Of a DNA stretch of 64,000 bases, positions 14,551 to 41,489 are shown in pieces. Position 1 is the stretch's first letter. Each line of letters begins with the position of its first letter. Source of the stretch: Candidatus Omnitrophota bacterium (GTDB lineage Bacteria > Omnitrophota > Omnitrophia > Omnitrophales > Aquincolibacteriaceae); contig JBDRCT010000031.1 in the NCBI GenBank assembly GCA_043821445.1, positions 116,871 through 180,870 of the forward strand, written 5' to 3'. The position numbers and the translations under genes are program-made. The notes beneath the pieces are model-generated. The model saw only the letters and a list, made by a program, of their open reading frames with translations. It did not search any database and was not told the origin of the DNA.

Positions 14551-14576
14551 TTCTACCGGTATGTTTTTTCACCCAG

Positions 14577-16465: not shown

Positions 16466-16493
16466 CCATTTATCCAATCGATAAAGACCCGTT

Positions 16494-17396: not shown

Positions 17397-18802
17397 CCAC
17401 TTACATTCTTGGGGCGGGGCCGACTGGTTTGGCGGTTGCGGACGGCTTGATCGATGTTAGCGCGGGCGATTTCGTGGTTTTGGAACAAGGCGCTAAATTG
17501 GGGGGGCAGGCCCGAACTGTTCGATGGGAAGGGGTGGGTCATCACGATCTTGGACCGCACAAGATTTTTTCTCTTAATAAACATTTAACCCACCGGGTCG
17601 AGGCTCTTCTCCCTGGATCTGACTGGTTAACGAGAGACAAAGTTAGCAGTATTTTTATGAGGGGACATTATTTGCCGTATCCCCCATCTCCATTCTCCCT
17701 TGCCGGTGTTTTTGGACTAGCGGCATTTCTGAAGATGGTTGCCGGTTATGGATTTGCGCGCATGGGTAGTTTGTTCAGTTCGCGCAAGTCCGCAACATTT
17801 GCGGAAGATCTGGTCACCCGCTTGGGGAGGCCGCTTTATGAGATTTTGTTTAAACCCATTGCCGAAAAATTATGGGGCGAGCCTAAGAGCTTGGATGTAA
17901 AATTGTCCAGAGGAAGAGTCCAAACCCCATCGCTTTTGGAGCTGCTTGGCCGGCTATTGAAGATCAAAAAAAACAGCGAATTTGAAGCATTGACGTTCCG
18001 CTATCCCAAGGGAGGATTGGGACGATTGTGGGAGGCTATTCAGACAAAGGCGCAAGGTCGCGGAAGGTTTCTTCTGGAACACACTGTCACAGGGCTTGGT
18101 GTGGAGGCTAACCGTGTCCGGCAGATCAGATTCTCTTCGAAAGAGATCAATGGAGTGATCGATTTAGCTCCGGAGGATCAGGTGGTTTCGACTTTGCCGC
18201 TGGCGCAAACGGCGCAGTTTTTATCTCAGGTATTGCCGCCCCATTTTCCGAAGTTGGTAGAAAATGTTATTGTCTTGAACGATCTGCTGCTAGTGTTCCT
18301 GCACATCGATAAGCCCAGTTTATTGCGTGAGTCTTGGCTGTTTATCCCGGATCCAGAAATCGCGTTCCATCGCTTGAGCGAACAAGAATCTTTTGATCCG
18401 GCGATGACCCCCAACGGTAGTATTGTGTGTTGCGAAATGATGAGCAGCGCTTGCCGCCCACTGGCTGGAAAAACTGATGAAGAGTTGTCTGCGCTTGCTC
18501 TTGAGGGGCTCGCGGCCATGGGTTACGGTGATTTTAAAGTGTTGGGCAAGAGAGTTCTTAGGTTGCCAAAGAGTTACCCGGTATTTCGCACCGGTTTTGA
18601 GGTCGGTTTGTCCGAACTTATCAACGCTCTAGATCAGTTCAAAAATTTTCATTCCATTGGAAGGCAAGGTGCATTTAATTACATAGGGACCCTTGATGCT
18701 ATGGACATTGGATACGGATTTGCTGACTGGCTCGCGAATGGTAGAAGTCGTCCTTGGCAGGACGAGCGCAAGAGAACCAATCACTATCCAGTGCTGGATT
18801 GA
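17393..18802 (+). CDS. FAD/NAD(P)-binding oxidoreductase (amine-oxidase/PPOX-like fold)
   Basis: N-terminal ILGAGPTGLAVA dinucleotide-binding motif. 469 aa. Start overlaps the methyltransferase stop. Confidence 0.75.
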   Translation: MTTYILGAGPTGLAVADGLIDVSAGDFVVLEQGAKLGGQARTVRWEGVGHHDLGPHKIFSLNKHLTHRVEALLPGSDWLTRDKVSSIFMRGHYLPYPPSPFSLAGVFGLAAFLKMVAGYGFARMGSLFSSRKSATFAEDLVTRLGRPLYEILFKPIAEKLWGEPKSLDVKLSRGRVQTPSLLELLGRLLKIKKNSEFEALTFRYPKGGLGRLWEAIQTKAQGRGRFLLEHTVTGLGVEANRVRQIRFSSKEINGVIDLAPEDQVVSTLPLAQTAQFLSQVLPPHFPKLVENVIVLNDLLLVFLHIDKPSLLRESWLFIPDPEIAFHRLSEQESFDPAMTPNGSIVCCEMMSSACRPLAGKTDEELSALALEGLAAMGYGDFKVLGKRVLRLPKSYPVFRTGFEVGLSELINALDQFKNFHSIGRQGAFNYIGTLDAMDIGYGFADWLANGRSRPWQDERKRTNHYPVLD

Positions 18803-18805
18803 ACC

Positions 18806-20317
18806 ATGCGATTAACGATGATCTCGCCGAGACTGGCTTTTCAAAAAGGAGATTTCCTGGGTTCCGGGGTCCCTTACTGGCCTTTGGAGTTGGCCACGCT
18901 TGCTGCCTACGCACTTCAGACGGGAGATACCGTTGCTTTTGTCGATCAGTTTGGTGCCAATCCGTCTCGACTCGCCGACGCAGGTGATCATTATCTCCAA
19001 GGGGAGCCCATTGATACCCCGGCGTGGCGTGAACGATTGGAGCAGGCGGAGGCATTTGTCTTGTACGCTATCTCCTATATGTCACACGGAGACTTACTTG
19101 TGACAATCCGATGGCTTAAAGATTCATTTCCTGAAAGACCAGTAGCCGTTCTGGAGAATTCTCAAGCAGTCACCGCTTACTCACTGGAGTGCATGGCACC
19201 CTCCTTTTTTGATGCGGGGGCGGATCTGCTGATCTGCGGGGAGCCCTACTTCAACTGGGCCGCGATCAAAAGACAATTAACGGAAAAGGGCCACGATCCA
19301 TCGATAGTTCCTAACGTCATCACGCGAGAATCTCGCGTCTCACCCCGCCGGTTCAATGAAAAACTAGACCGCTATCCAATTCCGGCATGGGATCTCATGA
19401 ATTTAGATGGATATTGGCGATTGCCCTATGCTCATGGTCCCAAAACGCGCAAATTCCTGCCGATCCTCACATCCCGGGGTTGTCCCTATCCTTGCGATTT
19501 TTGTGTTGTGCCTGAGACGAACGACAAACAGTGGCGGGGAAATGATCCCGAACAGGTTGTCGACGAGATGATCGCTCTGCGAGACCAATATGGTGTTCAT
19601 GACTTTCAGGTTGAGGATCTTAATCCTACCGTTCAACCCCATCGTTGGGAAAAAATTTGTGAACTTTTGATCAAGCGCAAAGCCGATATTCGGTTTTATT
19701 TTGTAAGCGGAACAAAAGCTGAAACTGTCCCTGTGGATAAAACAGCTCTGTTCGCAAAAGCCGGTTGCAGGTATCTATCCATCAGCCCGGAATCTGGCAG
19801 CAGCGATCTGATGCAAGTCATGGGGAAGAGATTTGACTATTCCCGGGGTGTCGAATTAATTGCGGCGTGTAAAGCCTGTGGCATTCGGACGCAAGCCTGT
19901 TTTTTGGTAGGGCATCCTAATGAAACGGAAAAAGATCTCGAACTTTCAAACAGCTACCTTTCACGCCTGGTCAAGGCGGGGTTAGATGAGGTCGCCGTTT
20001 TTGTTCTCGCACCCTTTGCAGGAAGTGAGCTCCATAGAAGAAAGAGCATCATTTTGAAAGATCAAAACACTCTCATCAGCTTTTCGCCGAAAGGACGGGC
20101 TGATTACGAAATGTTATCGCGTAGCAGGAGGATGCTTGTGCGAACTTTTCTCATCCAAAAATTAAAATATAACGGGATCGAATTGTGCTTGCAGGGATTG
20201 CGAGCGATTTTGGGTGTCCCAGAAACCAAGGTCGAAAATTTGCCCCGGCGGATGGTCTTTATTTACTGGCAGGTGCTGAAGCTAGCCGTGGCCAAAAAGT
20301 CAGGTCCTCGATCATGA
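18806..20317 (+). CDS. B12-binding domain radical SAM protein (paralog 3)
   Basis: ILTSRGCPYPCDFCVVPE cluster motif. Same domain order as the other two paralogs. Confidence 0.85.
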   Translation: MRLTMISPRLAFQKGDFLGSGVPYWPLELATLAAYALQTGDTVAFVDQFGANPSRLADAGDHYLQGEPIDTPAWRERLEQAEAFVLYAISYMSHGDLLVTIRWLKDSFPERPVAVLENSQAVTAYSLECMAPSFFDAGADLLICGEPYFNWAAIKRQLTEKGHDPSIVPNVITRESRVSPRRFNEKLDRYPIPAWDLMNLDGYWRLPYAHGPKTRKFLPILTSRGCPYPCDFCVVPETNDKQWRGNDPEQVVDEMIALRDQYGVHDFQVEDLNPTVQPHRWEKICELLIKRKADIRFYFVSGTKAETVPVDKTALFAKAGCRYLSISPESGSSDLMQVMGKRFDYSRGVELIAACKACGIRTQACFLVGHPNETEKDLELSNSYLSRLVKAGLDEVAVFVLAPFAGSELHRRKSIILKDQNTLISFSPKGRADYEMLSRSRRMLVRTFLIQKLKYNGIELCLQGLRAILGVPETKVENLPRRMVFIYWQVLKLAVAKKSGPRS

Positions 20318-21024
20318 ACTCACGGCGTGTGTTGATCATCATTCCTTGTTATAACGAGCAAGTGTCGGTTGCGTTGCTTTTGAAGGAAATTGCAGATTGC
20401 CGGCAAGGCTATGAAACGATCGTTATCGATGACGGTTCGCAAGATGCGACCTATCAAACAGCCCGTCAATTTTCACCTGCCGTGAAATTGCCGAGAAATC
20501 TTGGGATCGGGGGCGCAGTGCAAACGGGGATCAAATATGCTCGCAACCAAGGTTTTGATTTTTGCATTCAGCTGGATGGCGACGCCCAACACGATCCTCA
20601 TGAGATCCCGAAGCTTCTGCAGGCTTATCAGGAAATGCCTCACCCGATCATTATAGGCAGCCGCTATTTACAAAAGGATACATTTCGTTCGACTTGGGTG
20701 CGTAGATTCGGCGGAAAGATCATTGCAAAGGTAATGAGCTTATTATTTCCTGGAGGCACTATTACTGACCCCACAAGCGGTATGCGGTTAATGGATCGAA
20801 ATGCGATCGAATTTTTTTCAAAGCGCTATCCCCATGATTTTCCGGAGCCGATCTCTTTAGCATGGGCGCTCCGGGTGGGGTTTACGGTGGGTGAAGTCCA
20901 AGTCAAAATGCGTATGCGTACGCATGGAAAAAGTTCGATCGTGGGTCTGAAGCCCATAAGCTATATGTTCCGGGTCCTGGGGTATGTTATTCTAGCCCGG
21001 TTTTTGCGCATTTCAGCATTTTAA
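20314..21024 (+). CDS. GT2 family glycosyltransferase (polyprenyl-phosphate sugar synthase-like, ArnC/DPM1-like)
   Basis: VLIIIPCYNEQ...IVIDDGSQD...LDGDAQH motifs. The ATG at 20314 overlaps the rSAM3 stop. The ORF track starts further upstream at 20185. Confidence 0.82.
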   Translation: MNSRRVLIIIPCYNEQVSVALLLKEIADCRQGYETIVIDDGSQDATYQTARQFSPAVKLPRNLGIGGAVQTGIKYARNQGFDFCIQLDGDAQHDPHEIPKLLQAYQEMPHPIIIGSRYLQKDTFRSTWVRRFGGKIIAKVMSLLFPGGTITDPTSGMRLMDRNAIEFFSKRYPHDFPEPISLAWALRVGFTVGEVQVKMRMRTHGKSSIVGLKPISYMFRVLGYVILARFLRISAF

Positions 21025-21039
21025 CAGGAGGTTGTTCCT

Positions 21040-21423
21040 ATGTATGACGTTTCTATCAAAACCATTATTGCTATCACCCTTTTTGCCTGCGGGTATATGT
21101 TTTTTATTATTCGCAAGACAGCCCGAGGCCAACTGGACCTCTATGACCTGATCATGTTGTCCGCAGTGGCCATTATTCCGAGCGCGTTCGCATTGTTCCC
21201 CAAGGTCGGGGTTTTTTTAGCGACCAGTACGGGGGTGCTGTTTCCTTTTGTTGTGTTATTCGGGATCTTGCTTGTGATTCTCTTTATTTTTATACATCGC
21301 CTGACTGTCAAGATCCACCGATTGGAATCGGATAGCCGGTTGCTATTGCAGGAATTAAGTTTGCTCAAGCAAACCGTAGACAACAAACAAAGCCGCATTG
21401 CTCCGGCAGTTTCAGCTCAATAA
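21040..21423 (+). CDS. Small 3-4 TM membrane protein (DUF2304-like partner of GT2)
   Basis: 127 aa, very hydrophobic, with a C-terminal amphipathic tail. Lies immediately downstream of the GT2 gene, a pairing common for polyprenyl-P-sugar synthases. Confidence 0.6.
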   Translation: MYDVSIKTIIAITLFACGYMFFIIRKTARGQLDLYDLIMLSAVAIIPSAFALFPKVGVFLATSTGVLFPFVVLFGILLVILFIFIHRLTVKIHRLESDSRLLLQELSLLKQTVDNKQSRIAPAVSAQ

Positions 21424-21524: not shown

Positions 21525-23327
21525 TTAATTTCCCCATAAAGGAGCATGTTCCTTTTTCAATTTCAAATACTCAACCAACACCGCCAAAGCTTTTTCTTTA
21601 TCCCCTTTTTCTTTGTACAGCAGCGCTAAAGCATCGTAGCCCTCTTTTGAAGAAGGAGAGACGGCGATCGCCTTCCGAAAACAAGAAATAGCCTCATCCT
21701 CACGCCCTGTTTCGCGGTAAAGTTCCCCAAGCTGGATATAGTAGAAGGGGTATTGAGGATTATCGTGCGTGGCTTTTTCTAATGATTGAATAGCCCTTGA
21801 GATTTTCCCTTCCTTAATAAAAGAGATGGCTTCATTATAAAAAAACAAACCTTGGGATGATTCCTTCGTTGGTTGTTGTAAGAATAAAACTTCCTGTAGA
21901 TACCGTTTGCTCATTTCAGAATTTCCTAAGGCTGAATACGCATTGCTCATGTTCGCCAGGAGCCGCGGGGTTTGCCGACCTGTTTCCAGCGCTTTTTGAT
22001 AATAAAGGAGAGCGGTTTTTTCATCTTTTCGCTCTTTGGAGTAGGCTTCGCCCAGCAGCATGTAAGAACGGTACTTGAAGGGGGATTTTCTGATATTGTC
22101 ACGCCAGAAGACGAACGGATCTTTCCATAATTCATTCCTGGCATAAGTCATTCCGGATAAAACGACTGCGAGGATCAGAATCGCAGCCAGAAAACCCCTT
22201 GAGGATTTCGTAAGCAACCACAAAAAAGATGCAACGAAAAGAGAGAAGCCGAACATCGGGAGGTATAAGCGATGTTCGAAGATGACATCGGGATAGGGGA
22301 TCAGAGAGGACTCAACGCTTAAGGTCAGGAAGAACCATAAGATCCCGAAGGAGAGAAGACGGTATTTTTTAAAAAAGAGGAAACTTAGGACAAGAAGACT
22401 CACAAGTAACGAAAATGCTGCCCACGCGTCAGGATCTCCCCAAGCTGCCGACATACGGTAATCATAATCAAGGCATTGACCTGCTGGAAAAAAAAGAAGC
22501 CGCAAATAGGTCCTCATGACGCGGAATTCGGTCAGGAGGAAATCCCAGCGGGAAATGTGGGTGTTCCATGTGGGCAATAGATTCATGGCGCCGCCGATGC
22601 GAACAAGATTGTCCTTGTAAATGATCCAGGTTAACGGGACGACCAAAAGGAAGGCGGCGAAAGGGAGCCATCGGAGGACCTTTTTTGCGAACGTTTCTTT
22701 TTCGGAAAGCGGGAAAAAAAACCATTCCACAAGCAGGATTGCAAAAGGAAGAGTAAAACCGATCTCTTTAGTGAACATGGCTGCCAGCATGGAAAGAAAG
22801 ACGGCCGGGTAATACCGGGCGTTTTCAATTCGTGCCTTTAAATACATCCAGAGCGTTGCCAGGTAAAAAAGAGTGGCTAATGAGGTCATTCGCTGGACGA
22901 CGTATGTGACGGCCTGGGTCTGGATCGGATGCGTTACGAATAAAAGAGCGGTCCCGAGTGCGAACAGATCCCGGTGCGAGGCGGACAGAGTATCCTTGAG
23001 TGCAGGGGTGCTCAGCAGCAGTCGAGTGGTCCCGAAAACGGTGAGCGATACCAGAAGGTGGATCAGCAAATTGATGAGATGAAAACCCCAAGGCGCTAGG
23101 CCCGTCAAAACATATTGCAGGGCAAAGCTTAGGTTCGCGACAAAACGGGTAGGAAAACTTTCCCAGATCCTTCCCAGGTTGATAGGAGGGCGCAAGGAGA
23201 GATTTTCAACGATACGCATCTGATCGTCAAAATAAAATGGGACATCAAAAGTGTTAGAATAGGCCAGGACCCCGAAAAGCAGGATCAGGAGCAAACAGGT
23301 TCGCGAGGATAACGGTTTTGAATTCAT
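21525..23327 (-). CDS. PMT/TMTC-like (GT-C fold) polytopic membrane glycosyltransferase-like protein with C-terminal TPR repeats, paralog 1 (type A)
   Basis: 600 aa. Its ~11-TM N-terminal domain carries a YFDD motif after TM1. The C-terminal ~200 aa consists of TPR repeats (AYSALGN..., YYQKALE...). Confidence 0.7.
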   Translation of the reverse strand: MNSKPLSSRTCLLLILLFGVLAYSNTFDVPFYFDDQMRIVENLSLRPPINLGRIWESFPTRFVANLSFALQYVLTGLAPWGFHLINLLIHLLVSLTVFGTTRLLLSTPALKDTLSASHRDLFALGTALLFVTHPIQTQAVTYVVQRMTSLATLFYLATLWMYLKARIENARYYPAVFLSMLAAMFTKEIGFTLPFAILLVEWFFFPLSEKETFAKKVLRWLPFAAFLLVVPLTWIIYKDNLVRIGGAMNLLPTWNTHISRWDFLLTEFRVMRTYLRLLFFPAGQCLDYDYRMSAAWGDPDAWAAFSLLVSLLVLSFLFFKKYRLLSFGILWFFLTLSVESSLIPYPDVIFEHRLYLPMFGFSLFVASFLWLLTKSSRGFLAAILILAVVLSGMTYARNELWKDPFVFWRDNIRKSPFKYRSYMLLGEAYSKERKDEKTALLYYQKALETGRQTPRLLANMSNAYSALGNSEMSKRYLQEVLFLQQPTKESSQGLFFYNEAISFIKEGKISRAIQSLEKATHDNPQYPFYYIQLGELYRETGREDEAISCFRKAIAVSPSSKEGYDALALLYKEKGDKEKALAVLVEYLKLKKEHAPLWGN

Positions 23328-23333
23328 AGGGCT

Positions 23334-25124
23334 TTAATTTCCGAACAAGGGTTTGTGCTTCTTCTTGAATTTCAGGTATTCCACCAAGACATCCACAGCT
23401 TTCTGCGGGTCCCCCTTTTCCTTATAAAAAAAAGCCAAAGCGTTATAGCCCTCCTGGGATAAAGGGGCCAGCTCGATGGCTTTCCGGAAAGAAGACACAG
23501 CCTCGTCCTCCTGCTGCATTTTGCGATAGGCCTCGCCGAGTTGGATGTACGTCCAAGGATTCTGAGGGCTTATTTGTATGTCTTTCTTCAGCATCGTTAC
23601 AGCTTCCGCATATTCACCCTTGTTTATCAGAGTGAGCGCCTGGTTATCATAAAAAGAAAGTGTTTTTCTTAACACTGAAAATGATAAAGCTATATTTTTA
23701 AAGTAAACGCTTTTCTCACGATCACCAAGTTGAAAATAAATTTCAGACAGGTTTAAAAAAACCAGGGGAGTGGTAAATCCCAAGTCCAACGCTTTTTGAA
23801 AACAAAATGCCGCGGCTTTGTAATCCTTCACTTCTCTTCTGTAGGCATCACCCAGGCCGGCATAACAAATCCCCTTGTGAGGTGTTTTTTTTACGACGTC
23901 TTGGGCTAGTGAAAGCTTGCTTTTCCACACCTCGTTCCGGGCGTAAGTCATACCTGAAAAAACAACAGTGATAACCAACGAAACAGCGGTGAACCATTTG
24001 ACGGACCTTACTAGTGTCCAAAGAAGCGATGTCAAGAAGAGGACAAATCCGAACGTGGGGAGATAAAGTCGGTGTTCGAATATCAGATCAGGAACAGGGA
24101 TGAAGGAAGATTCGACGCTGAGAGTCAGGAAGAACCATAAAACGCCGAAAGTTAAGAGCCGGTTCTTTTTAAAGCATGCGAGTGACAGAAGCAAAACACT
24201 GAAAAGCAGTGAAAAAGCCACCCACGTATCCGGATCTCCCCAGCCTTTTGAAAGACGATAATCATAGATAAGGCATTGATCGACCGGAAAAAAAAGAAGC
24301 CGCAAGTAGGTCCTTTCGACGCGGAACTGAGTTAAGAAATAATCCCACCGGGAGATATTCTTGGCCATAGATGGAAGGATGTTCATGGATCCACTATCGC
24401 GCGTGAAGATATGAATATTGGTCAGATAAAGTAATGGGATGATCAAAAGAAATGCCGCAAAAGGGAGCCAGCGGATCAATTTTTTGCCGAGAGGATCTTC
24501 GGCCGAGGGCGGAAAGAAGAACAATTCCGAGAGCAGGATCGCGAAGGGGAGGGTGAAGCTGATCTCTTTGGTCAACATGGCTGCCAACATGAGGAGAAAA
24601 ACAACCCGGTAGTAACGGGCGTCCTCCAGCCGTGCCTTAAGGTACATCCAGAGCGTAGCCAAATAAAAAAGGGCCGCCATCGAAGTCAAACGCTGCACAA
24701 TATAAGTGACCGCCTGGGTTTGCACAGGATGCGTTAAAAAAAGAAGTGCGGCGACCACGGCAAACAGATTCTGTTGTGCGGGAGGCACCCAATTTTTCAT
24801 GGCAGGGGTGTTGAGGATCGATAGAGTAAGATTGAACACGACGCACGAAGCAAGGATATGTATTAGCAGATTGACAACGTGAAAGCCCCATGTTGCAAAG
24901 CCCGTCAGGTAAATGTTGAAAGCGAAGCTGAGATTTACAATAAAGCGAAGCGGATGGTAGATCCAGAGTTTTCCGAGATCCAGGGGCTGAAGGGAACGGT
25001 TTTCCAGGATGTTGGGGATATCATCAAATTGAAAAGCTCCGGTCAAACTATTAGAGTAGGCCGCGATCCCGAAGAGCAGGATGAGGAGCAGACAGGTTCG
25101 TGTGGATAACGGTTTTAGATCCAT
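23334..25124 (-). CDS. PMT/TMTC-like GT-C membrane protein with TPR domain, paralog 2 (type B)
   Basis: 596 aa with a QFDD motif. The N-terminal ~230 aa is nearly identical to paralog 4. The C-terminus is a TPR domain. Confidence 0.7.
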   Translation of the reverse strand: MDLKPLSTRTCLLLILLFGIAAYSNSLTGAFQFDDIPNILENRSLQPLDLGKLWIYHPLRFIVNLSFAFNIYLTGFATWGFHVVNLLIHILASCVVFNLTLSILNTPAMKNWVPPAQQNLFAVVAALLFLTHPVQTQAVTYIVQRLTSMAALFYLATLWMYLKARLEDARYYRVVFLLMLAAMLTKEISFTLPFAILLSELFFFPPSAEDPLGKKLIRWLPFAAFLLIIPLLYLTNIHIFTRDSGSMNILPSMAKNISRWDYFLTQFRVERTYLRLLFFPVDQCLIYDYRLSKGWGDPDTWVAFSLLFSVLLLSLACFKKNRLLTFGVLWFFLTLSVESSFIPVPDLIFEHRLYLPTFGFVLFLTSLLWTLVRSVKWFTAVSLVITVVFSGMTYARNEVWKSKLSLAQDVVKKTPHKGICYAGLGDAYRREVKDYKAAAFCFQKALDLGFTTPLVFLNLSEIYFQLGDREKSVYFKNIALSFSVLRKTLSFYDNQALTLINKGEYAEAVTMLKKDIQISPQNPWTYIQLGEAYRKMQQEDEAVSSFRKAIELAPLSQEGYNALAFFYKEKGDPQKAVDVLVEYLKFKKKHKPLFGN

Positions 25125-26872
25125 TACAAGTCCTCAGCGTTTCCGATGAGATCAGACGGATTTGCCTGATTTTTTTGAAGCTCCTGAAGAGTCGCGAGAA
25201 GCTCATGCGCAGGACGTAAAAAAGGATCAAGCGTGATGGCCCTTTCGAGCAGCGAGATCGCCTGCGGATACTCTTTTTTTAGCACATAAATACGAGCCAA
25301 CTCATAATGCGCGATCGAACTTTCGGGCTCCGAGGCGATCGCTGTTTTTAACAAGGAGGCCGCGCTCTCCAGATCTCCCTCTCTCATTTTCAAGACGGCC
25401 AGGTTCGTATAAAGGGTGCCCGACCTTGGATAGGCTTCGAGCCCTTTATGATACCAATACTTCGCTTTAGAAATTTGTCCCGCATTTGCATAGGCCGATC
25501 CCACATTATTGAAATGAATATCATTCCTCTGGCCGGGTGATTTCAAGGATAACGCTTTCAAAAAACTATCAGCTGCCAACAGATATTGATGGTTTTTGTT
25601 GTACGTTTCACCCAGGTGAAAATAGCCGCGGCTTTGCAAAGGAGCTGCCCGGGTTTGATCTTGCCAGAAAAGGAGCTCGTTTGCCCATACGGCGTTGCGC
25701 CGATAAGTGAGCGTCCCCAAAATGAGCGCCAGCGCGATTAAGACAAATCTAAAAAGTCCGGAGGTTTTGATGAATTTCGTGAGGACTGAAGCCGCAAAAA
25801 AACAAAATCCGACCATTGGGAGATAAAGGCGATGTTCAAAGATCACGTCTTTAGCGGGGAAAAAAGAAGACTCGGGGATCAGGGTCAGAAAGAAAAATAA
25901 AATACCAAAAGATAAAAGGCGGTATTTTTTAAAGAGTGCGATAGCGAGCGAGAAAATGCCAAGAAGGAGGAAAAAAGCCGACCATGTATTAAGATCGCCC
26001 CAACCCGTTGAAAGAGGATATTCATAATCGAGGCACTGATCGATCGGAAAGAAAAGAAGCCTCAGATAAGTCCTTATAACGCGGAATTGAGTTAAAAGGT
26101 AATCCCATCGATAAATCTTGTCGTCTAGGGGAGGCAGATTGCCAATAAGATGCTCCGGAAATGTTATAAAAATCAAAGGAATGATCAAAAGACAGGCCGC
26201 AAAAGGGATCCAACGGCGGAGTTTTTTTGAAACGGTTTCAATCGGAGAGAACGGGAAAAAACACACATCGATCAGAAGGATCGTAAAAGGAAGCGTGATG
26301 CTGATCTCCTTCGTGAGCATGGCGAGCAGCATAAAAAGAGAAACAGACCAAAAATAGCGGGTATTTTCAAGGCGTGCTTTAAGATAAAACCAGAGAGTGG
26401 CCAGGTAAAAAAGGGCGGCTAACGAGGTCATGCGTTGAACGACGTATGTGACGGCCTGAGTCTGAATGGGATGTGCTACAAATAAAAAAGCGGTTCCGAG
26501 AGCGAACAGATCTTGGTGCGAAGCGGGGAGAGTGTTCTTGAGTGCGGGCGTCCTTAACAGTGATCGAGCGATCCCGAAAACGGCGAGTGCCGCCAGAAGA
26601 TGGATCAGGAGATTGGTAAGATGAAAACCCCAGGGAGACAGACCCGTTAAAGAATATTGCAGGGCAAAGCTTATGTTTGCGACAAAACGGGTAGGGAAAC
26701 TTTCCCAGATTCTTTCCAAGCTGATAGAGGGGCGCAGGGAGAGATTTCTAATGATTCGATGCTGATCATCAAAATAGAAGGGGGCGTTGAGGGTATTGGA
26801 GTAGATGAGGCACCCCAACAAAAGAAGCAGTGCGACGGACACAGAGAGCGACAAAGATTTTTCTTTTTCCAT
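25124..26872 (-). CDS. PMT/TMTC-like GT-C membrane protein with TPR domain, paralog 3 (type A')
   Basis: 582 aa with a YFDD motif. Closest to paralog 1 (shared ...RIWESFPTRFVAN.SFALQY.LTGL.PWGFHL.NLLIHLL). Confidence 0.7.
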   Translation of the reverse strand: MEKEKSLSLSVSVALLLLLGCLIYSNTLNAPFYFDDQHRIIRNLSLRPSISLERIWESFPTRFVANISFALQYSLTGLSPWGFHLTNLLIHLLAALAVFGIARSLLRTPALKNTLPASHQDLFALGTAFLFVAHPIQTQAVTYVVQRMTSLAALFYLATLWFYLKARLENTRYFWSVSLFMLLAMLTKEISITLPFTILLIDVCFFPFSPIETVSKKLRRWIPFAACLLIIPLIFITFPEHLIGNLPPLDDKIYRWDYLLTQFRVIRTYLRLLFFPIDQCLDYEYPLSTGWGDLNTWSAFFLLLGIFSLAIALFKKYRLLSFGILFFFLTLIPESSFFPAKDVIFEHRLYLPMVGFCFFAASVLTKFIKTSGLFRFVLIALALILGTLTYRRNAVWANELLFWQDQTRAAPLQSRGYFHLGETYNKNHQYLLAADSFLKALSLKSPGQRNDIHFNNVGSAYANAGQISKAKYWYHKGLEAYPRSGTLYTNLAVLKMREGDLESAASLLKTAIASEPESSIAHYELARIYVLKKEYPQAISLLERAITLDPFLRPAHELLATLQELQKNQANPSDLIGNAEDL

Positions 26873-26990
26873 AAAAATTTGATTTCAAACTCAATAATTA
26901 ATATAGAAGGATTATTTCTGATCAGTGTACGGTATTTTTTAATGTCCGCTCGAAGTTTTCCGCCATCTGTTTGCACGATTTTAGAATATC

Positions 26991-28781
26991 TTAATCTCCG
27001 AACAGGGGTTTGTGTTTCTTTTTGTATTTCAGATATTCCACCATGACGGCCACGGCCCTCGGCTCGTCCCCCTTTTTTTTATAAAGAAAAGCCAGGGCGT
27101 TATAGCCCTCCGGGGATAAAGGCGCCAGCTCAATGGCTTTCCGGAAAGAAGACACGGCCTCATCCTCTCGTTGCATTTTAAGATAAGCTTCTCCGAGATG
27201 GAGATAGAACAAAGGATTCTCAGGACTCATCTTTATGTCTTCCTTCAACATCTTGACGGCTCCTGCATAATCGCCCTTTTTGATCAGAGCAAGCGCATGA
27301 TTGTCATAAAAAGAAATATTGTCTTTCAAGGCCGAGGAAGATGAAATTATTTTTTGAAAATAAGCGCTTTTTTCGTATTCACCCAGACGGCCATAGGCGG
27401 CGGCCAAGTTATAAAAAACCCAGGGAGTGACAAAGCCCAAGTCCAATGCTTTTTGATAACAGACCGCCGCGGCCTTATCATCCCTTGCTTCCCTGCTGTA
27501 AGCATCGCCCAGGCCGGCATAAGAGAGCCCCTTGTGAGGATTTTTTCTTACGGCATCTTGGGCCAGCGAAGTGATGGTTTTCCATACTTCATTACGGGCA
27601 TAAGCCATGCTTGAAAAGACAACAGCGATGGCCAGTGAAATAGCGGTAAACCACTTCACGGACCTTAAAAGTATCCAAAGAAGCGATGTCAGGAAGAGGA
27701 CAAATCCGAACATGGGAAGGTAAAGGCGGTGTTCGAATATCAGATCAGGAACAGGGATCAGGGAGGACTCGACACTGAGGGTCAGGAAGAACCATAAAAC
27801 GCCGAACGTTATAAGGCGATTTTTTTTAAAAAAAGCGAGGGATAAAATAAAAACGCTCAAAAGCAATGAAAAAGCCGCCCACGTATCCGGATCTCCCCAA
27901 CCCGTTGAGAGACGATGATCATAAACAAGGCATTGATTGACCGGAAAAAAAAGAAGCCGCAAGTAGGTCCTCTCGACGCGGAACTGAGTCAGGAGATAAT
28001 CCCACCGGGGGGTGCTCTTAGCCATGGATGGGAGAATGTTGATGGATCCATCGATACGCGCGAGAAGATGAGGATATGTCAGATAAAGTAATGGGATGAT
28101 CAAAAGAAATGCCGCAAAAGGGAGCCAGCGGATCAATTTTTTGCCGAGAGGATCTTCGGCCGAGGGCGGAAAGAAGAACAATTCCGAAAGCAGGATCGCG
28201 AAGGGGAGGGTGAAGCTGATCTCTTTGGTCAACATGGCTGCCAACATGAGGAGAAAAACAACCCGGTAGTGACGAGCGTCCTCCAGTCGTGCTTTAAGGT
28301 ACATCCAGAGCGTCGCCAAATAAAAGAGGGCCGCCATCGAAGTCAAACGCTGCACAATATAAGTGACGGCTTGGGTTTGTACGGGATGTGTCGTGAATAG
28401 AAGTGCGGCGACCAAAGCAAACAGATTTTGTTGTGCGGGAGGTACCCAATCTTTCATGGAGGGAGTGCTGAGGACCGATCGGGTAAGATCGAAGACGACG
28501 AGCGAAGTAAGGATATGTATCAGCAGATTGACAACGTGAAAGCCCCATGTTGCAAAGCCCGTCAGGTAAATGTTGAAAGCGAAACTGAGATTTGCAACAA
28601 AGCGAAGAGGATGGTAGAGCCAGAGCTTTCCGAGATTCAGGGGCTGAAGGGAATGGTTTTCCAGGATGTTGGGGATATCATCGAACTGAAAAGCTCCGGT
28701 CAAACTATTAGAGTAGGCCGCGATCCCGAAGAGCAGGATGAGGAGCAGACAGGTTCGTGTGGATAACGGTTTTGAATTCAT
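26991..28781 (-). CDS. PMT/TMTC-like GT-C membrane protein with TPR domain, paralog 4 (type B)
   Basis: 596 aa. DNA identity to paralog 2 is roughly 95% over long stretches by eye (e.g. 28215-28350 vs 24560-24700). Preceded by a conserved sigma70-like promoter element. Confidence 0.7.
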   Translation of the reverse strand: MNSKPLSTRTCLLLILLFGIAAYSNSLTGAFQFDDIPNILENHSLQPLNLGKLWLYHPLRFVANLSFAFNIYLTGFATWGFHVVNLLIHILTSLVVFDLTRSVLSTPSMKDWVPPAQQNLFALVAALLFTTHPVQTQAVTYIVQRLTSMAALFYLATLWMYLKARLEDARHYRVVFLLMLAAMLTKEISFTLPFAILLSELFFFPPSAEDPLGKKLIRWLPFAAFLLIIPLLYLTYPHLLARIDGSINILPSMAKSTPRWDYLLTQFRVERTYLRLLFFPVNQCLVYDHRLSTGWGDPDTWAAFSLLLSVFILSLAFFKKNRLITFGVLWFFLTLSVESSLIPVPDLIFEHRLYLPMFGFVLFLTSLLWILLRSVKWFTAISLAIAVVFSSMAYARNEVWKTITSLAQDAVRKNPHKGLSYAGLGDAYSREARDDKAAAVCYQKALDLGFVTPWVFYNLAAAYGRLGEYEKSAYFQKIISSSSALKDNISFYDNHALALIKKGDYAGAVKMLKEDIKMSPENPLFYLHLGEAYLKMQREDEAVSSFRKAIELAPLSPEGYNALAFLYKKKGDEPRAVAVMVEYLKYKKKHKPLFGD

Positions 28782-28810
28782 AGAGCCTCAAAATTGAGCG
28801 ATCGCGGCGC

Positions 28811-28839
28811 ATTATGTTCGATTTGAAGACAGCGTACAA
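28811..28839 (-). promoter_or_regulatory. Conserved sigma70-like promoter (TTGTAC-N17-CATAAT on the minus strand) upstream of TMTC-like paralog 4
   Basis: The minus-strand sequence reads cggcaaaagacTTGTACgctgtcttcaaatcgaaCATAATgc. The element spans 28809-28850 and starts 27 nt upstream of the start codon. A near-identical element lies upstream of paralog 5. Confidence 0.45.
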
Positions 28840-28946
28840 GTCTTTTGCCGGGGGGATTTTTTAAAAATCGGATGGAGCATTCCGGAAGGTGAAAAGCCGG
28901 GTCGTCATCCACCCTCCGCTATCCGTTCTCCCGGTTTTGAAATACT

Positions 28947-30746
28947 TCAATTTCCAAACAAGGGTTTGTGCTTCTTTTTGAATTTCAGATATTCCACCAT
29001 GACATCCACGGCTTTTTGCCGTTCCCCCTTTTTTTTGTAAAAACGGGCCAGAGCATCGTAGCCTTCTCTGGATAAAGGTGCCAGGTCGATCGCTTTCCGG
29101 AAAGAAGCGATGGCGGCATCTTCTTGCCCCGTTTCGATATAGAGTTCCCCAAGCTGAATGTGAAAAAAATGATCCGGGGGGTTGGCTTTGATAGCTTTCT
29201 TTAAGGAGTCAATGGCCTCCGGTATTTTCTTTTCCTGTTTCAAATAGACCACTTGATTGTAATCAAGGATACCTCGCGCGGAGTAGCCTTCTGACTCCGC
29301 GGAAGCAAGCGCTTGTTTTTGGTAGTAAGCGCTTGCTTTAGAGTTTCCAAGTTGGGAATAAGCCGATGCCATATTGGTGAGAAGTACCGAGGTATAAGAT
29401 CCCGCTCTGAGCGCCTTGTTGAAAAACAGAATGGCGGTTTTAAAGTCTTTCAATTCTCCGGCATAAGCTAAACCCAGGGAACAATAAGGACGCCATTTGC
29501 GGGGGGATTTTTTTGACGCGTCTTCCCACAATGTGAAAGAATTTTGCCATACTTCGTTGCGGACATAGGTCATGCCGGAAAAAACCACAACCACGGACAG
29601 TGAAATGGCAGTAAACCATTGGGTGGACCTTAAAAGTATCCATAGAAGCGATGTCAGGAAGAGAACAAACCCGAACATCGGGAGGTAAAGGCGGTGTTCA
29701 TAGATGACGTCAGCAATAGGGATGATAGAAGATTCGATGCTGAGGGTCAGGAAGAACCATAAAACACCAAAGGTTAAGAGGCGATTTTTTTTAAAAAAGG
29801 CAAGGCTCAGGATGAAGATGCTGAAGAGTAATAAAAACGCGGCCCAAGTATCAGGATCTCCCAAACCCGACGAAATGCGGTAGTCGTAGTCGATGCATTG
29901 GTTCACCGGAAAAAAAAGAAGCCGCAGGTAGGTCCTCCCGACGCGGAACTGAGTCAGAAAATAATCCCATCGGGAGATATTGCCAGCCACGGACGGGAGA
30001 ACGTTCATGGATCCTCCGACGCGCGTGAGAAGAAAACTATTCATAAGAAAAAGCAAGGGGATGATCAAAAGAGATGCCGCGAAAGGGATCCAGCGGATAA
30101 GTTTTTTGCCAAGAGGGTCTTCGGCACAGGGTGGAAAGAAGAACAATTCTGAAAGCAGGATCGCAAAGGGAAGAGTGAAGCTGATCTCTTTGGTCAACAT
30201 GGCAGCAGCGGTGAAGCAGAGAGCAAGACGATAGTGACGGGGATCCCCAAGGCGTGTCTTGAGATACATCCAGAGCGCGGTTAAATAGAAAAGGGTTGCC
30301 ATCGAAGTCGCGCGTTGCACGATATAAGTCACAGCTTCGGTTTGCACGGGATGTGTCGTGAAAAGAAGTGCGGCGACCAGGGCAAACAGATTTTGCTGCG
30401 CGGGAGGCACCCAATTTTTCATGGAAGGGGTGTTGAGGATCGATCGAGTAAGATTGAAGACGATGAACGAAGTAAGGATATGTATCAGTAAATTTAAAAC
30501 ATGAAAGCTCCATGTTGCAAAACCCGCCAGATAAATGTTGAAAGAGAAGCTGAGATTTGTGATGAAGCGGGAGGGATATTCCCGCCAGAGAGTTCCGAGA
30601 TTGAGAGGCCAAAGGGAACGGCCTTCCAAAATGTGCATGCCATCATCAAACTGAAAAGATCCGGTAAAAGTGTTGGCATAGGCCCCGATCCCGAAGAGCA
30701 GGATCAGGAGAAAACAGGTTCGTGTGGATAACGGGTTTGAATTCAT
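28947..30746 (-). CDS. PMT/TMTC-like GT-C membrane protein with TPR domain, paralog 5 (type B')
   Basis: 599 aa with a QFDD motif. The N-terminal half is closely related to paralogs 2 and 4. Confidence 0.7.
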   Translation of the reverse strand: MNSNPLSTRTCFLLILLFGIGAYANTFTGSFQFDDGMHILEGRSLWPLNLGTLWREYPSRFITNLSFSFNIYLAGFATWSFHVLNLLIHILTSFIVFNLTRSILNTPSMKNWVPPAQQNLFALVAALLFTTHPVQTEAVTYIVQRATSMATLFYLTALWMYLKTRLGDPRHYRLALCFTAAAMLTKEISFTLPFAILLSELFFFPPCAEDPLGKKLIRWIPFAASLLIIPLLFLMNSFLLTRVGGSMNVLPSVAGNISRWDYFLTQFRVGRTYLRLLFFPVNQCIDYDYRISSGLGDPDTWAAFLLLFSIFILSLAFFKKNRLLTFGVLWFFLTLSIESSIIPIADVIYEHRLYLPMFGFVLFLTSLLWILLRSTQWFTAISLSVVVVFSGMTYVRNEVWQNSFTLWEDASKKSPRKWRPYCSLGLAYAGELKDFKTAILFFNKALRAGSYTSVLLTNMASAYSQLGNSKASAYYQKQALASAESEGYSARGILDYNQVVYLKQEKKIPEAIDSLKKAIKANPPDHFFHIQLGELYIETGQEDAAIASFRKAIDLAPLSREGYDALARFYKKKGERQKAVDVMVEYLKFKKKHKPLFGN

Positions 30747-30778
30747 TGCAGGCTCTCAGTGTTAAATAATGGTGGTGC

Positions 30779-30807
30779 ATTATGTTCGATTTAAAGACGG
30801 CGCACAA
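30779..30807 (-). promoter_or_regulatory. Second copy of the conserved sigma70-like promoter (TTGTGC-N17-CATAAT) upstream of TMTC-like paralog 5
   Basis: The 42-nt element 30777-30818 is about 38/42 identical to 28809-28850. It sits at the same distance from the start codon. Confidence 0.45.
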
Positions 30808-30931
30808 GTCTTTTGCCGCAAAAATCTTTCAAAAACAAGAAGACACCGGGCAACGAGGAATTTGGAGTTATACTTTAATGATCATGGCGACGAACAGGGC
30901 GCGATATATATTGCCGGCCCGGGATCCGGGA

Positions 30932-32857
30932 TCACATGACCCGGAGCGCCCCTTGCGGGCGGGGAAGTTCTTTTTTTTCTTGATCACCACTCTCGGATCG
31001 ATCCAAAAGCATTTGCGCTGCGGCAAGATTGTTCTTGACGGATTCGTTTTCCGGTTCGAGTTCGAGAGCCTCTTGAAAAGCCTGTGCGGCATTCTTATAA
31101 TCCCCCGAATTCATAAAAGCAGCTCCTAAACCCGCGTAACTATCCACTTCTTTCGGATTCAGTATGATAGCTTGCCGAAATAATCGGATGGCTTTTTGAT
31201 TTTCTCCCCGCACAGTATAAATAACCCCGAGACTGCGACGGGCGGAAGCCTCTCTCAAGGGAGCCTCAGGCTGGGTCTTTCGTTCCCGCTGATATTCCGG
31301 ATCCGTTTCAAGCGCGATAGATTTTTCAAGGTAGGGCAGTGCTTCGGCGCGTTGCCTTTGTAAAAGATGTATATCTGCCATTTCAAGATAACAAAGAGCT
31401 TGGGTAAATGGCTTTGCGAGCGTGATCGCATGCCGGTAAGTGTCCAGGGCCTCTTGGTAGCGGCCGTTCCTTCCATAGATCTTGCCAAGATCCACGTAGG
31501 GGTAAAGATAGTCCGGCTTCAAGAGGATGGCTTTTCGAAATAAAAAAATAGTTTGGTCTTGAGTGCAAATTTTTGGACTATCACGGCATAGAATTCCCAG
31601 GTGAGCGTAGGCGAACGATGAGTGAGGGTTTTGGCGCAGAAGCTGCCACCAAAGCGTGAACCCGTCTTTATAGTTCAGGGTCAGGCGGAAGCTCAGGATA
31701 GAAAGATAAACGATCACTGCCGCAACGATGCTTTTTTTAAAAAAAGGAGAAGGAGCCCAGGAAGCGGTCCGGATCTTTGAAAGTAAGAGGGAAATGCCCG
31801 AGCAGAACAACAGCAGAATGGATGGAACGGAGAGGTAGGTGTAGTGGTCCGCTACATAAGAAAACCGGTGCCAACAAAAATCAAGGAGCCCCAGTACAGG
31901 GAAAAGGGAAACGCCGTAGAAACAAAGAAGCGCGAAAGCCCCGCGGCCAAGGCGGTGACGTTTCCAAAACAATATTGCATAAAGGGTCAGGACCCCCGCA
32001 GGATAAAGCCATGCGGTCACAGGGTTCCCGCCGATTGTCCACTTGGGGTAAAAGGTCATGAAATCCCGGGGAAGTATCATTTGCTGGATGTAAAAGAAGA
32101 AGATCCGTCCTGCGAGGAGCACCCTTTCAATAAGGCTTAACGGAAGATCGGGGATCTGCGGGGAGATGCTATAAGCATTTACAAGGTCAAGATGGAGGAT
32201 CGAGATCATGCCCCCTATCAGGAAAAGGGGCATGGCGAGAAGGAAATCGCGCTTGCAGAGGGAGCCTCGCTTCCACCACCCATAGAGGAGAGGAACGAAC
32301 GCAAAGCAAGCCGCTATGGGTTTACTCAAAAGTGCGGCGATAAAAAAAAGAAGTGATTTCGCGTAGGCCCTTTTTTTTCTGCTTACCTCGAAATCAAGAA
32401 ATGCGTGAACAGCCAACAGGAAGAAAAAAAAGCAAAATAGATTCTTTTGCTCCGAGATCCAGGCAACTGTTTCGACATGGATAGGATGGATCACGAACAG
32501 TAAAGCAATGATGCCGGCCAGACGGGGGGCCCATTTCCGCAAAAGTCCGAAAAGAAGCAGGGCGTTCAAAATATGGAACACTAAACTGATAACATGATAT
32601 CCCCAAGCGCTGACTCCCCAGAGTTTGTACTCGAGTCCGATACAAGAAAGAGTAACGGGATAATATTCTTCAATAATGTTATTGTGGAACCAAATGTTCT
32701 TGAGCCCCGCCCAGGAGCTGACAAATGGATTTTCAAAAACATAAAAACTATCATCCCAAACAAAACCATGGGTCAAAGAACGCGCGTAGATGAGTATCCC
32801 AAGAGTGACCGTCAATAAGACCCAAAACAGTTCTTTGGCCGAAAGCTTTCCGTTCAA
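30932..32857 (-). CDS. PMT/TMTC-like GT-C membrane protein with TPR domain, paralog 6 (divergent type C)
   Basis: 641 aa. Same architecture (polytopic N-terminus with a VWDD motif after TM1, C-terminal TPR repeats) but divergent in sequence. TTG start preceded by a GGGAGG RBS. Confidence 0.65.
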
Positions 32858-35118: not shown

Positions 35119-36894
35119 GTGGCTTTCCATCGCAAGGGGGTTGGGCACATGCAAAAACTCAGTGATACCAGCGATAAAAAAATCAGAATCATCCATCAAA
35201 ATGGTAAAAGCGTCTCTGAACCGCTGGCTCCCAAGAAAGGGATAGTCTTCAGCCTTTTTAACTTCTCGAGGGCCCAGACCCCCGGAGAAAATACTACAAC
35301 TGTTTTAAGTAAACTCGTTCCAGAAATACTTCGCCCTGGTACCCCGCGGGCCGATCTCAAAGCCGTTAAGAGCTGGATCGCTCTGGAAGAAAAGGTTGTC
35401 CACGATTACACGGAGCAAAAAAAAGCTCAACCCAAGAGCGCCGTTCCTTTGTCGACCACTCCTCGCCTTGATATCCTGCGAGCCGATCTCGCAGCCATCA
35501 AGAACCGTGTTGCTCTGGAAAAAAAGGTTGTCCGTGATTATCAGGAGCAAAAAACGGCTCAGTCCAAGAGCGTTGTTCCTTTGCCAAAAACTCCTCGCCC
35601 TGATCTCCTGCGAAACGGTCTCACCGCCGTCAGGAATTGGATTTCTTCATGGGAAAAGGCCGTTCGCAATGGCAAAGAGCAGCAAAAAGCTCAACCTAAG
35701 AGCGCCGTTCCTTCGCTAACCACTCCTCGTCTTGACGTCCTCCGAGCCGATCTTGCAGCCGTCAAGAACTGGGTTGCTTTGGAAGAAAAGATCGTTCACA
35801 ATGATAAGAAACAACAAACGCCTCACTCCGAGAACGCTGTTCCTTTGCCAATCCCCCCTCGCCCGGATACCTCTCGGGCCGATCTTACAACCATTAAAAA
35901 TCGTATTGCTTTGGAAGAAAAGGTTGTCCTTGATCATAAAGAGCAAAAAAAGGAGCAAAAAACAGCTCAGCCCAAGAGTGTTGTTTCTTTGCCAAAAACT
36001 CCTCGTCCCGATCTCCTGCAAACCGGTTTCGCCGTCGTAAGGAATTGGGTTTCTCTTGGGGAAAAATTTGTCCGTGATTATAAGGCTCAAAAAACAACTC
36101 AGCCCAAGAGCGTCGTTTCTCTGCCGAAAACCCCTGAGAAACAGTCCTTGCCCGTTTTTGAGACTTTCAGCATGCAAGCGGCCGTTTCCTCTGCTCCTCA
36201 CATTCCAAAACTCAAGGATCCCCTTCGCGGGTCGGAAAGGATCTCCTTAAAGCTGCGAAAATTTTTACTGGTATTAGGGTGGCTTACAGCAGGGGTCCTT
36301 GTGTTTTTGTATATTCAAGAGGCCTTTTTGAATCGTGAGGTATTGCAGAAACTTTCGCAGCTAAAAAACGAGAAAAATCTTCTCGAACAGTCTTACGTTG
36401 CGCTTCAGAATGTTTGGGAGAATCAGCGCGCGGAAATAAAATCGTTGAATAGCGAACTTCAGGATACGATCTTAGAACTAAAAACGGCCAAATCAGAGAT
36501 CGATACTTTACAAAACACGGTTCAGACTCAAAATGCCATCATCAGGGCCCTTAAGGCTCAGAGCCAAGCCTTTGAAAAGATCATCGATCAGGGAGGTCTG
36601 TCGGCCCTTTCCGGTGCTGCTGCTGGATTTTCGAGCGGACAATTTTTAACTGGGAGAACCCCCATATCGCAAGGAGAAATTACCTCGGTCAATGACCGGA
36701 GAGGTTTTGTTGTGATCAACATGGGTGCTAATCAGGGGGCCTATCCGGGGCGCTGGATCACGATCTCCCGGAACGACAGAGAGCTTGCGGTCGGGCGCAT
36801 CGATCGGGTTTATCCCACCATGTCCGTCGCTGTGCTTCGCAGTTCGGGCATGTTGCAGGTGGTTCAAGAGGGCGATCGCGTTTTCTTTTCTTAA
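35119..36894 (+). CDS. Tandem-repeat protein: six ~44-aa proline/lysine-rich repeats, one TM helix, a coiled coil and a conserved C-terminal domain; likely a pilus/secretion-associated accessory protein
   Basis: The repeats PR(P/L)D.L(R)ADLAA(I/V)KN(R/W)(I/V)ALEEK(V)V.DY.EQK.AQPKS(V/A)VPLPKT span about 35330-36130 with a ~132 nt period. TM helix is LLVLGWLTAGVLVFLYI. An alternative start at the ATG at 35149 has a better AAGGGGG RBS. Confidence 0.75.
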   Translation: MAFHRKGVGHMQKLSDTSDKKIRIIHQNGKSVSEPLAPKKGIVFSLFNFSRAQTPGENTTTVLSKLVPEILRPGTPRADLKAVKSWIALEEKVVHDYTEQKKAQPKSAVPLSTTPRLDILRADLAAIKNRVALEKKVVRDYQEQKTAQSKSVVPLPKTPRPDLLRNGLTAVRNWISSWEKAVRNGKEQQKAQPKSAVPSLTTPRLDVLRADLAAVKNWVALEEKIVHNDKKQQTPHSENAVPLPIPPRPDTSRADLTTIKNRIALEEKVVLDHKEQKKEQKTAQPKSVVSLPKTPRPDLLQTGFAVVRNWVSLGEKFVRDYKAQKTTQPKSVVSLPKTPEKQSLPVFETFSMQAAVSSAPHIPKLKDPLRGSERISLKLRKFLLVLGWLTAGVLVFLYIQEAFLNREVLQKLSQLKNEKNLLEQSYVALQNVWENQRAEIKSLNSELQDTILELKTAKSEIDTLQNTVQTQNAIIRALKAQSQAFEKIIDQGGLSALSGAAAGFSSGQFLTGRTPISQGEITSVNDRRGFVVINMGANQGAYPGRWITISRNDRELAVGRIDRVYPTMSVAVLRSSGMLQVVQEGDRVFFS

Positions 36895-38524: not shown

Positions 38525-38537
38525 GGAGCGTTAGAAC

Positions 38538-41465: not shown

Positions 41466-41489
41466 GACAGGGGAGTCAAACGAAATCGC

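Follow-up and report, generated by a model that had tools for sequence, protein, structure and literature searches.

In animals, the protein O-mannosyltransferases TMTC1-4 and TMEM260 are client-specific and linked to disease, and the TMTCs among them carry roughly 8-12 tetratricopeptide repeats (TPRs), compared to about 5 in the proteins described here. Metazoan TMTC1-4 (GT105) comprise an N-terminal GT-C module of 11 transmembrane (TM) helices, an Asp-Asp pair (DD) in the first extracytoplasmic loop and non-cytoplasmic C-terminal TPRs, and they occur as several paralogues with different TPR domains per genome. The same holds true for the proteins encoded by a tandem array of six paralogous genes at positions 21525-32857 of a 64,000-nucleotide stretch of DNA (the window) from a Candidatus Omnitrophota bacterium (contig JBDRCT010000031.1, positions 116,871 to 180,870). 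With the tuf genes, the rRNA operons and the opa/pil families, which undergo concerted evolution, the array shares a stretch of the gene in which paralogues of one genome resemble each other more than orthologues do, incongruent segment trees, over-long identical tracts and an unstable copy number. Unlike in these families, conversion in the array appears to be segmental, comprising the promoter and the 5' part encoding the membrane domain, while the 3' TPR domains stay distinct. Altogether, it is likely that the array is an old tandem family which evolves by gene conversion as well as gene gain and loss and which encodes GT-C glycosyltransferases resembling TMTCs and protein O-mannosyltransferases (PMTs). 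Bacterial TMTC/PMT-like GT-C enzymes and tandem families with gene conversion are both kinds already known, and the literature yielded no report on this family in Omnitrophota or on a characterised bacterial TMTC-like enzyme.

An earlier note on this DNA, made from the sequence alone, had described six tandem GT-C/TPR paralogues. Six open reading frames (ORFs) on the minus strand indeed fill 21525-32857 exactly, and the GT-C plus TPR architecture of their products is real. In the following, G1-G6 denote the paralogues of the window, F those of the sister genome fen_1321 and K those of another genome. G1 (21525-23327, 600 amino acids, aa) combines a GT-C membrane domain and TPRs with a first periplasmic loop of the A type (FYFDD) and has no orthologue in the sister genome. 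G2 (23334-25124, 596 aa) is of the B type and carries a TPR domain of the 'position-2' type, while G3 (25124-26872, 582 aa), the stop of which overlaps the start of G2, is a chimera. G4 (26991-28781, 596 aa) and G5 (28947-30746, 599 aa) are again B-type proteins and are the orthologues of F2 (85% aa identity) and F1 (84%), respectively, the TPR domain of G5 being of the 'position-1' type. The last one, G6 (30932-32857, 641 aa, TTG start), is a divergent paralogue. All six are homologous, as the earlier note had assumed, and this over their full length, with 44-82% aa identity among G1-G5 and about 26% between G6 and the others. A tblastn search over the window revealed no extra copies or fragments of the family, and neither Rfam nor tRNA scans of the window gave a match.

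The motif subtypes proposed before were found again, since G1 and G3 carry FYFDD and RIWESFPTRFVAN and G2, G4 and G5 carry FQFDD. Likewise, no two members of the array are closer to each other than G2 and G4, which form a direct repeat with an offset of 3657 bp. Over the whole ORF they show 84.9% identity at the nucleotide (nt) and 81.5% at the aa level; the repeat corresponds exactly to the ORF, the flanks being 29% identical. The DNA identity of about 95% that had been estimated for their membrane domains turned out to be 89.1% (87.5% aa), and values of at least 95% were reached in patches only, namely at nt 1-150 and nt 451-600 of the ORF. The divergence of the TPR domains is real, but with 76.7% nt and 70% aa identity it is moderate and not sharp as supposed. 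The drop starts at about aa 240-280 and thus lies within the membrane domain, the boundary to the TPR domain being located at about aa 395. The alternation of A and B types along the array is oversimplified as well, because the likeness of G1 and G3 is restricted to about aa 20-240 (72-86% nt). Their TPR domains share 26% aa identity, and that of G1 is closer to those of G2, G4 and G5 (45-52%). In general, the alignment per domain confirmed that the TPR domains of the paralogues are far more differentiated than their membrane domains.

For each domain, dN/dS (omega), the ratio of nonsynonymous (dN) to synonymous (dS) divergence, was determined by the Nei-Gojobori method (NG86) on codon alignments with bootstrap confidence intervals (CI). 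Orthologue pairs with the sister genome (fen_1321, PLLJ01000014; loci L001, L002 and L006) served as controls. The G2-G4 pair showed a dS of 0.31 (CI 0.23-0.39), a dN of 0.06 and a dN/dS of 0.20 for the membrane domain, and a dS of 0.85 (CI 0.61-1.43), a dN of 0.18 and a dN/dS of 0.21 for the TPR domain. Diversifying selection on the TPR module, which the earlier note had put forward together with this very comparison, is therefore not reflected in the data. None of the 40-codon windows of G2-G4 exceeded an omega of 1, the maximum of 0.76 being found in a window with a dS of 0.07, although such pairwise NG86 comparisons have little power to detect selection at single sites. Purifying selection acts on both domains (omega of about 0.2), and the contrast between the domains of G2 and G4 is one of dS, i.e. 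of age. For the orthologues G4-F2, a dS of 0.44 and 0.41 and a dN of 0.08 and 0.08 were determined for membrane and TPR domain, and the corresponding dS values of G5-F1 were 0.60 and 0.59. Since orthologue dS and dN are equal across the domains, the TPR domain is not intrinsically fast and a domain-specific mutation rate is ruled out. With 0.31, the membrane dS is of similar size to the divergence from the sister species (0.41-0.44), and a very recent duplication of G2 and G4 is accordingly not supported. Along the gene, the G2-G4 dS amounts to 0.04-0.2 at aa 1-100 and 141-240, compared to an orthologue level of about 0.4, and to 0.4-1.95 from about aa 280 on, which places the break inside the membrane domain. 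Accordingly, aa 1-100 and 141-240 of this pair are younger than the speciation, while the part from about aa 280 onward is older.

The distribution of identical positions points in the same direction. Three perfect matches of 110, 87 and 82 nt occur between G2 and G4 (permutation p<0.001), whereas the longest perfect run of the equally diverged orthologue pair G4-F2 comprises 40 nt (p=0.52). The runs of 110 and 82 nt are separated by one mismatch and together form a putative recent conversion tract of 193 nt at 24421-24613 on the minus strand, with its G4 copy at 28078-28270. The further run of 87 nt is located at 25030-25116 and matches 28687-28773. A second line of evidence comes from bootstrapped neighbour-joining (NJ) trees, which were calculated per domain for 15 paralogues from four genomes and which confirmed that the membrane and TPR trees are incongruent. 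The TPR tree groups the proteins by array position across genomes (F2+G4 100%, with K2 added 93%, F1+G5 98%), and the G2 TPR branches outside (K2,(F2,G4)), which makes it older than two speciation events. The membrane-domain tree, by contrast, tends to group the proteins by genome, as seen for K1+K2 with 100%. For K1-K2, a dS of 0.34 was determined for the membrane and of 1.36 for the TPR domain, while the membrane dS between genomes amounted to 1.11 for G4-K2 and 0.82 for G5-K1. Thus, over part of the gene the dS of paralogues within a genome falls below that of orthologues between genomes, with uniform orthologue controls, as is typical of concerted evolution.

An exchange of segments between the two types can be seen for G3. 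Its codons 1-20 (approximately) and those beyond 360, which encode the TPR domain, have F3 as their orthologue (80-87% nt, TPR dS of 0.63). Codons of about 20-240 are G1-like (72-86% nt) and those of about 260-350 resemble the B type. G3 is therefore a clear chimera with segments swapped between the types, and its mosaic structure explains the high membrane dS of 2.38 for G3-F3. Altogether, the patterns of divergence point to repeated gene conversion within genomes, by which the promoter and the 5' membrane-domain part become homogenised, with G2/G4 as the latest case and K1/K2 in another genome as an independent one. As shown by the domain trees, the TPR types are ancient and inherited by position. 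Their escape from homogenisation could either be caused by selection which keeps distinct specificities or by TPRs which are too divergent to recombine.

Upstream of G4 and G5, promoter-like elements were found on the minus strand, TTGTAC-17-CATAAT at 28811-28839 (58 nt upstream of G4) and TTGTGC-17-CATAAT at 30779-30807 (61 nt upstream of G5). In four genomes with protein identities of 55-85%, B-type paralogues are preceded, at a distance of about 58 nt, by the conserved element AAAGACTTGTrCG...TCGAACATAAT. Outside the window it lies at about 7985 and 9943 in L001, 8111 in L004, and 2409 and 4355 in L027. No such element is present upstream of G6, G3, G2 and G1. Since G3 and G2 overlap and G1 begins 6 nt after the stop of G2, the arrangement of the genes suggests that the likely transcription units are G6, G5, G4 and G3-G2-G1, with G1 as the last gene of a putative operon.

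A comparison with relatives showed that the locus is syntenic. It is flanked by uppS-cdsA-dxr-rseP-proS-dinB and, at its other end, by leuCD, behind which pilM/O and secretin genes are located. The number of copies next to leuC is one in the P0007 contig, two in L004/L005 and L027, four in L001, L002, L003 and L026, and six in the window (the P0007 contig and one place for P0021 were read from gene tables). Only fen_1321 was found as a close relative in the scan of genome contigs. In distant phyla (loci L007-L025), the gene is single-copy within ±10 kb, which is of no help for dating the duplications. The expectation that the direct repeats promote changes in copy number thus holds true among related genomes. 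At the level of strains it was not observed, as four independent assemblies of the fen_1321 species (99.9-100% identical) all comprise the same 4-copy array, and the variation is accordingly one between species-level lineages and not between strains. That the repeats are recombinogenic is nonetheless supported. Between leuC and the first array gene, fen_1321 contains a remnant of G6 in which the first approximately 44 nt are fused to the last approximately 227 nt, about 1655 bp being gone. This remnant (L001 7504-8042, also in L002, L003 and L026) corresponds to 32960-32814 of the window joined to 31158-30700, and it indicates that G6 is ancestral and was deleted there. Furthermore, the speciation was preceded by the split of the F4 TPR from the F1/G5 lineage and likewise by that of the G2 TPR from the G4/F2 lineage. 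These early splits imply that the ancestral array was larger and that different copies were later lost in different lineages.

The architecture of the proteins was derived from an AlphaFold model of G4 (predicted local distance difference test, pLDDT, of 87.2; predicted template modelling score, pTM, of 0.88). The model comprises 11 TM helices and two long periplasmic loops, the first periplasmic loop containing the DD (residues 34-35). Its multi-pass membrane module has the GT-C fold, in line with GT-Cs of the GT-C_A type. The C-terminus (residues 403-589) consists of about 5 TPRs and a capping helix. The loops FFKKN and RS follow the positive-inside rule and the TPRs come after TM11. According to the model, the TPR domains of the array are predicted to be periplasmic and to follow the last of 11 inner-membrane helices. 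In Pfam searches of the six proteins, only the TPRs were detected with confidence (E-values of 1e-11 to 1e-23). Labels such as MamA, PilW and TadD from Pfam/NCBIfam were rejected, as they reflect generic TPR similarity far below the cut-offs. The best structural matches of the G4 model are the PMTs Pmt4 and Pmt2, and some homologues were named 'protein O-mannosyl-transferase' by JGI. Compared to fungal and actinobacterial PMTs (GT39), however, the TPR domain takes the place of the luminal beta-trefoil, a MIR domain is missing and the identity amounts to 8-13%. Neither PF02366 (PMT) nor a MIR domain, the marks of the PMT family, was detected in the proteins.

Across 50 homologues, D34, H132-P133, K186, E350 and R352 are invariant and D35 is kept in at least 90%. 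All six paralogues of the window retain the DD in the first loop. G6 also retains 'LLFVIHPIH' and shows DHY in place of EHR (E-x-R) before TM10. The catalytic and phosphate-binding motifs of TMTCs were described as DD, HPIHT, a Lys in the third extracytoplasmic loop (EL3) and ER (PMC7801869). The residues D34/D35 (loop 1), H132-P133 ('LLFxxHPxQT'), K186 (loop 3) and E350/R352 (before TM10) of the homologues lie at the positions of these motifs. Thus, 'LLFAVHPIHT' of human TMTC3 corresponds to LLFxxHPxxT of these proteins, and both comprise the Lys in EL3 and the E-x-R before TM10. In contrast to the TMTCs, the DUF1736 signature of the TM7-TM8 loop was not detected in the array proteins, and these reside in a bacterial periplasm, would use a polyprenyl instead of a dolichyl donor and are encoded by tandem paralogues that exchange sequence. 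No TMTC was listed among the structural matches of the model in the Protein Data Bank (PDB). Because the search for DUF1736 gave no match, membership in GT105 is not established, and the TMTC likeness suggested here consists of architecture and of motif positions taken from the text of PMC7801869.

Next to G1, a DUF2304 small membrane protein of the family of GacJ and Rv3632 is encoded at 21040-21423 (plus strand), convergent with G1. It is preceded by a GT2 glycosyltransferase gene (20185-21024, plus strand), the product of which shows its best NCBIfam likeness to PpgS, PgfS and ArnC-type enzymes, all far below the equivalog cut-offs (76 vs 370 bits for PpgS). The listed GTG start of this gene overlaps the preceding radical S-adenosylmethionine (SAM) ORF by about 130 nt (20185-20317) and the Pfam domain begins at residue 51, so the true start probably lies further downstream. 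Both genes end a block of about 9.4 kb on the plus strand (12009-21423) between dinB and the array, which is absent at the syntenic site of fen_1321. Its first gene (12009-13085, plus strand) encodes a second GT2 with a C-terminal GtrA-like TM domain, a candidate polyprenyl-phosphate sugar synthase. It is followed by two B12-binding enzymes of the radical-SAM type, the likeness of which to HpnJ/BchE stays below the cut-offs, and by a methyltransferase, a flavin adenine dinucleotide (FAD)-dependent amine-oxidase-like protein, a radical-SAM enzyme and the GT2-DUF2304 pair. A similar cluster adjoins the 2-copy array in L004/L005, and in L004 the order GT2-DUF2304-GT-C/TPR is collinear. The GC content is 0.45-0.50 across 12-32 kb and 0.52-0.55 in the left flank.

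Activation of a GT2 by a DUF2304 protein is known for GacI and PpgS, with GacJ and Rv3632 as the activators (bioRxiv 10.1101/180810). Both GT2 enzymes produce polyprenyl-phosphate-N-acetylhexosamine donors for GT-C transferases, in the case of GacI/GacJ N-acetylglucosaminyl-phosphoryl-undecaprenol (GlcNAc-P-Und) for GacL (bioRxiv 10.1101/180810). The systems GacI/GacJ/GacL of Streptococcus pyogenes and PpgS/Rv3632 of Mycobacterium thus have in common with the present locus a GT2 and a DUF2304 gene beside GT-C genes. By analogy, the logic would be the same, with a polyprenyl-phosphate sugar made inside and transferred outside. GacL and the mycobacterial GT-C partner lack a TPR domain and decorate polysaccharides, while the array comprises six TPR-bearing GT-Cs. 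The GT2 at 20185-21024 is regarded as the candidate synthase of the lipid-linked sugar donor. Together with the adjacent GacJ-like DUF2304 protein, this cytoplasmic enzyme would load a monosaccharide onto polyprenyl phosphate, the lipid-linked sugar would be flipped to the periplasmic face, and each paralogue would pass the sugar on to the acceptor that its own TPR domain selects. Based on the PMT-like fold and the TPR domain, and in analogy to PMTs and TMTCs, the acceptor would most likely be a periplasmic or surface protein.

On the far side of leuCD, a set of genes of the type IV pilus or type II secretion system (T2SS) kind is located at 36926-44502 (plus strand), comprising PilM, a PilO-like protein, a secretin, an MshE-type ATPase and PilC/GspF. 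The adjacency of leuCD and the pilus genes is kept in fen_1321 and the L027 lineage and not in L004. A functional link of the array to the type IV pilus was not adopted, as leuCD intervenes and the L004 lineage comprises other genes at that flank. The gene between leuD and pilM (35119-36894, plus strand) is conserved without a Pfam or NCBIfam match, and relatives contain a pilM-adjacent version of 520-709 aa. Its product shows 4.7 tandem units of 44 aa (132 nt, about 70% matches, at 35331-35951) and, after these, a TM segment and a coiled-coil-like stretch.

The high similarity of G2 and G4 could also be explained by a very recent duplication, after which positive diversifying selection split the TPR recognition module and held the catalytic core constant. 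The most similar pair of the array, with 89% nt identity in the membrane and 77% in the TPR domain, and the strong differentiation of the paralogue TPRs would fit this scenario. It is nonetheless very unlikely, because the dN/dS is the same in both domains, stays below 1 in each window and is accompanied by an equal orthologue dN. Furthermore, the dS differs nearly threefold between the domains with bootstrap intervals that do not overlap, and one duplication date cannot produce both. The minimum membrane dS of 0.31, the identity drop inside the membrane domain and the position of the G2 TPR outside K2+F2+G4 are equally inconsistent with a young pair. Repeats are a classic source of mis-assembly in metagenome-assembled genomes, and each of the window proteins was found on a single contig only. 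It is nevertheless hardly credible that mis-assembly or a strain-chimeric joining of metagenome reads gave rise to the six-copy array or to the G2/G4 mosaic. The paralogues differ by at least 11-15% nt and the longest perfect repeat comprises 110 nt, and with the usual k-mers, copies that are so divergent and share such short repeats would be neither collapsed nor misjoined. The six ORFs are all intact, they contain the family-invariant residues, the flanking synteny matches relatives on both sides, the 4-copy and 2-copy versions are identical in independent assemblies, and mosaics also occur elsewhere (K1/K2).

A further explanation keeps the enzymes and their dynamics but assumes glycans or lipids as acceptors, such as side chains of surface polysaccharides, the core of lipopolysaccharide or a lipid from the neighbouring radical-SAM/methyltransferase cluster. 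The enzymes would then resemble GacL, GtrC-type enzymes, ArnT or the mycobacterial Rv3779. The characterised partners of GT2 and DUF2304 proteins are indeed polysaccharide-decorating GT-Cs (GacI/GacJ with GacL; PpgS/Rv3632). In addition, the array adjoins a cluster in which GT2s are combined with a methyltransferase, an FAD oxidase and three radical-SAM enzymes, a B12-binding domain having been detected in two of the latter, and this arrangement is also seen in L004. We consider this explanation unlikely, since the best structural matches are the protein-modifying Pmt4 and Pmt2 and since the C-terminal TPR is a protein- or peptide-binding module which defines the protein-specific TMTC and TMEM260 enzymes (PMC11292533). 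Moreover, a set of paralogues with distinct TPRs is more easily reconciled with several protein clients than with a single glycan, and four copies persist in the sister genome, which lacks the adjacent cluster.

Several observations weigh against the reading of the array as an old, converting family of TMTC/PMT-like enzymes. NG86 dS values above about 1 are saturated, some NJ nodes are weak (G2+G4 with 60% in the membrane tree, the placement of G1 with 46%), and reciprocal recombination or the replacement of TPR cassettes cannot be fully separated from gene conversion. The six-copy array is known from one assembly. The fold match is based on a predicted model, and DUF1736 (PF08409) gave no match in the six proteins at E<=0.01 or in 17 membrane domains at E<=1. 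PMT_2 (PF13231) stayed below its threshold (20.8 bits for G5 and 25.4 for G6 vs a cut-off of 26.1) and appeared in 6 of 17 relatives at E<=1. A profile of the 17 membrane domains searched against PDB sequences found no solved structure and only a spurious NdhC (E 0.02). The GT2 and DUF2304 genes of the window are convergent with the array and not co-transcribed with it, and we infer the sugar, the acceptor and the preference for a protein over a glycan target.

As a tentative extension, to which we assign a somewhat greater chance than to glycan or lipid acceptors but still a low one, the array could be the bacterial counterpart of TMTC1-4. It would then encode client-specific protein O-glycosyltransferases, each TPR domain recruiting a different class of periplasmic or surface protein, while conversion keeps the catalytic chassis uniform and the distinct TPR specificities are maintained by selection. 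In this case, the differences between the A- and B-type first loops might match the two neighbouring lipid-sugar synthases and hence two sugars. Clients could possibly include components of the neighbouring type IV pilus/secretin set or Omnitrophota adhesins. No evidence for programmed or high-frequency switching of the array genes was obtained.

The clean segmental concerted evolution described here gives rise to a contrast in domain identity that mimics diversifying selection and is in fact a difference in coalescence time, which calls for caution in scans that read selection off identity plots. With more than 5000 homologues at E<=1e-10, many of them in Omnitrophota and Latescibacterota, GT-C enzymes with a TPR domain occur in very great number among uncultured phyla. 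A locus with six paralogues, a candidate donor synthase and variants of one, two, four and six copies is a tractable entry to the targets of bacterial TMTC-like glycosylation and also allows one to ask how TPR domains encode client specificity.

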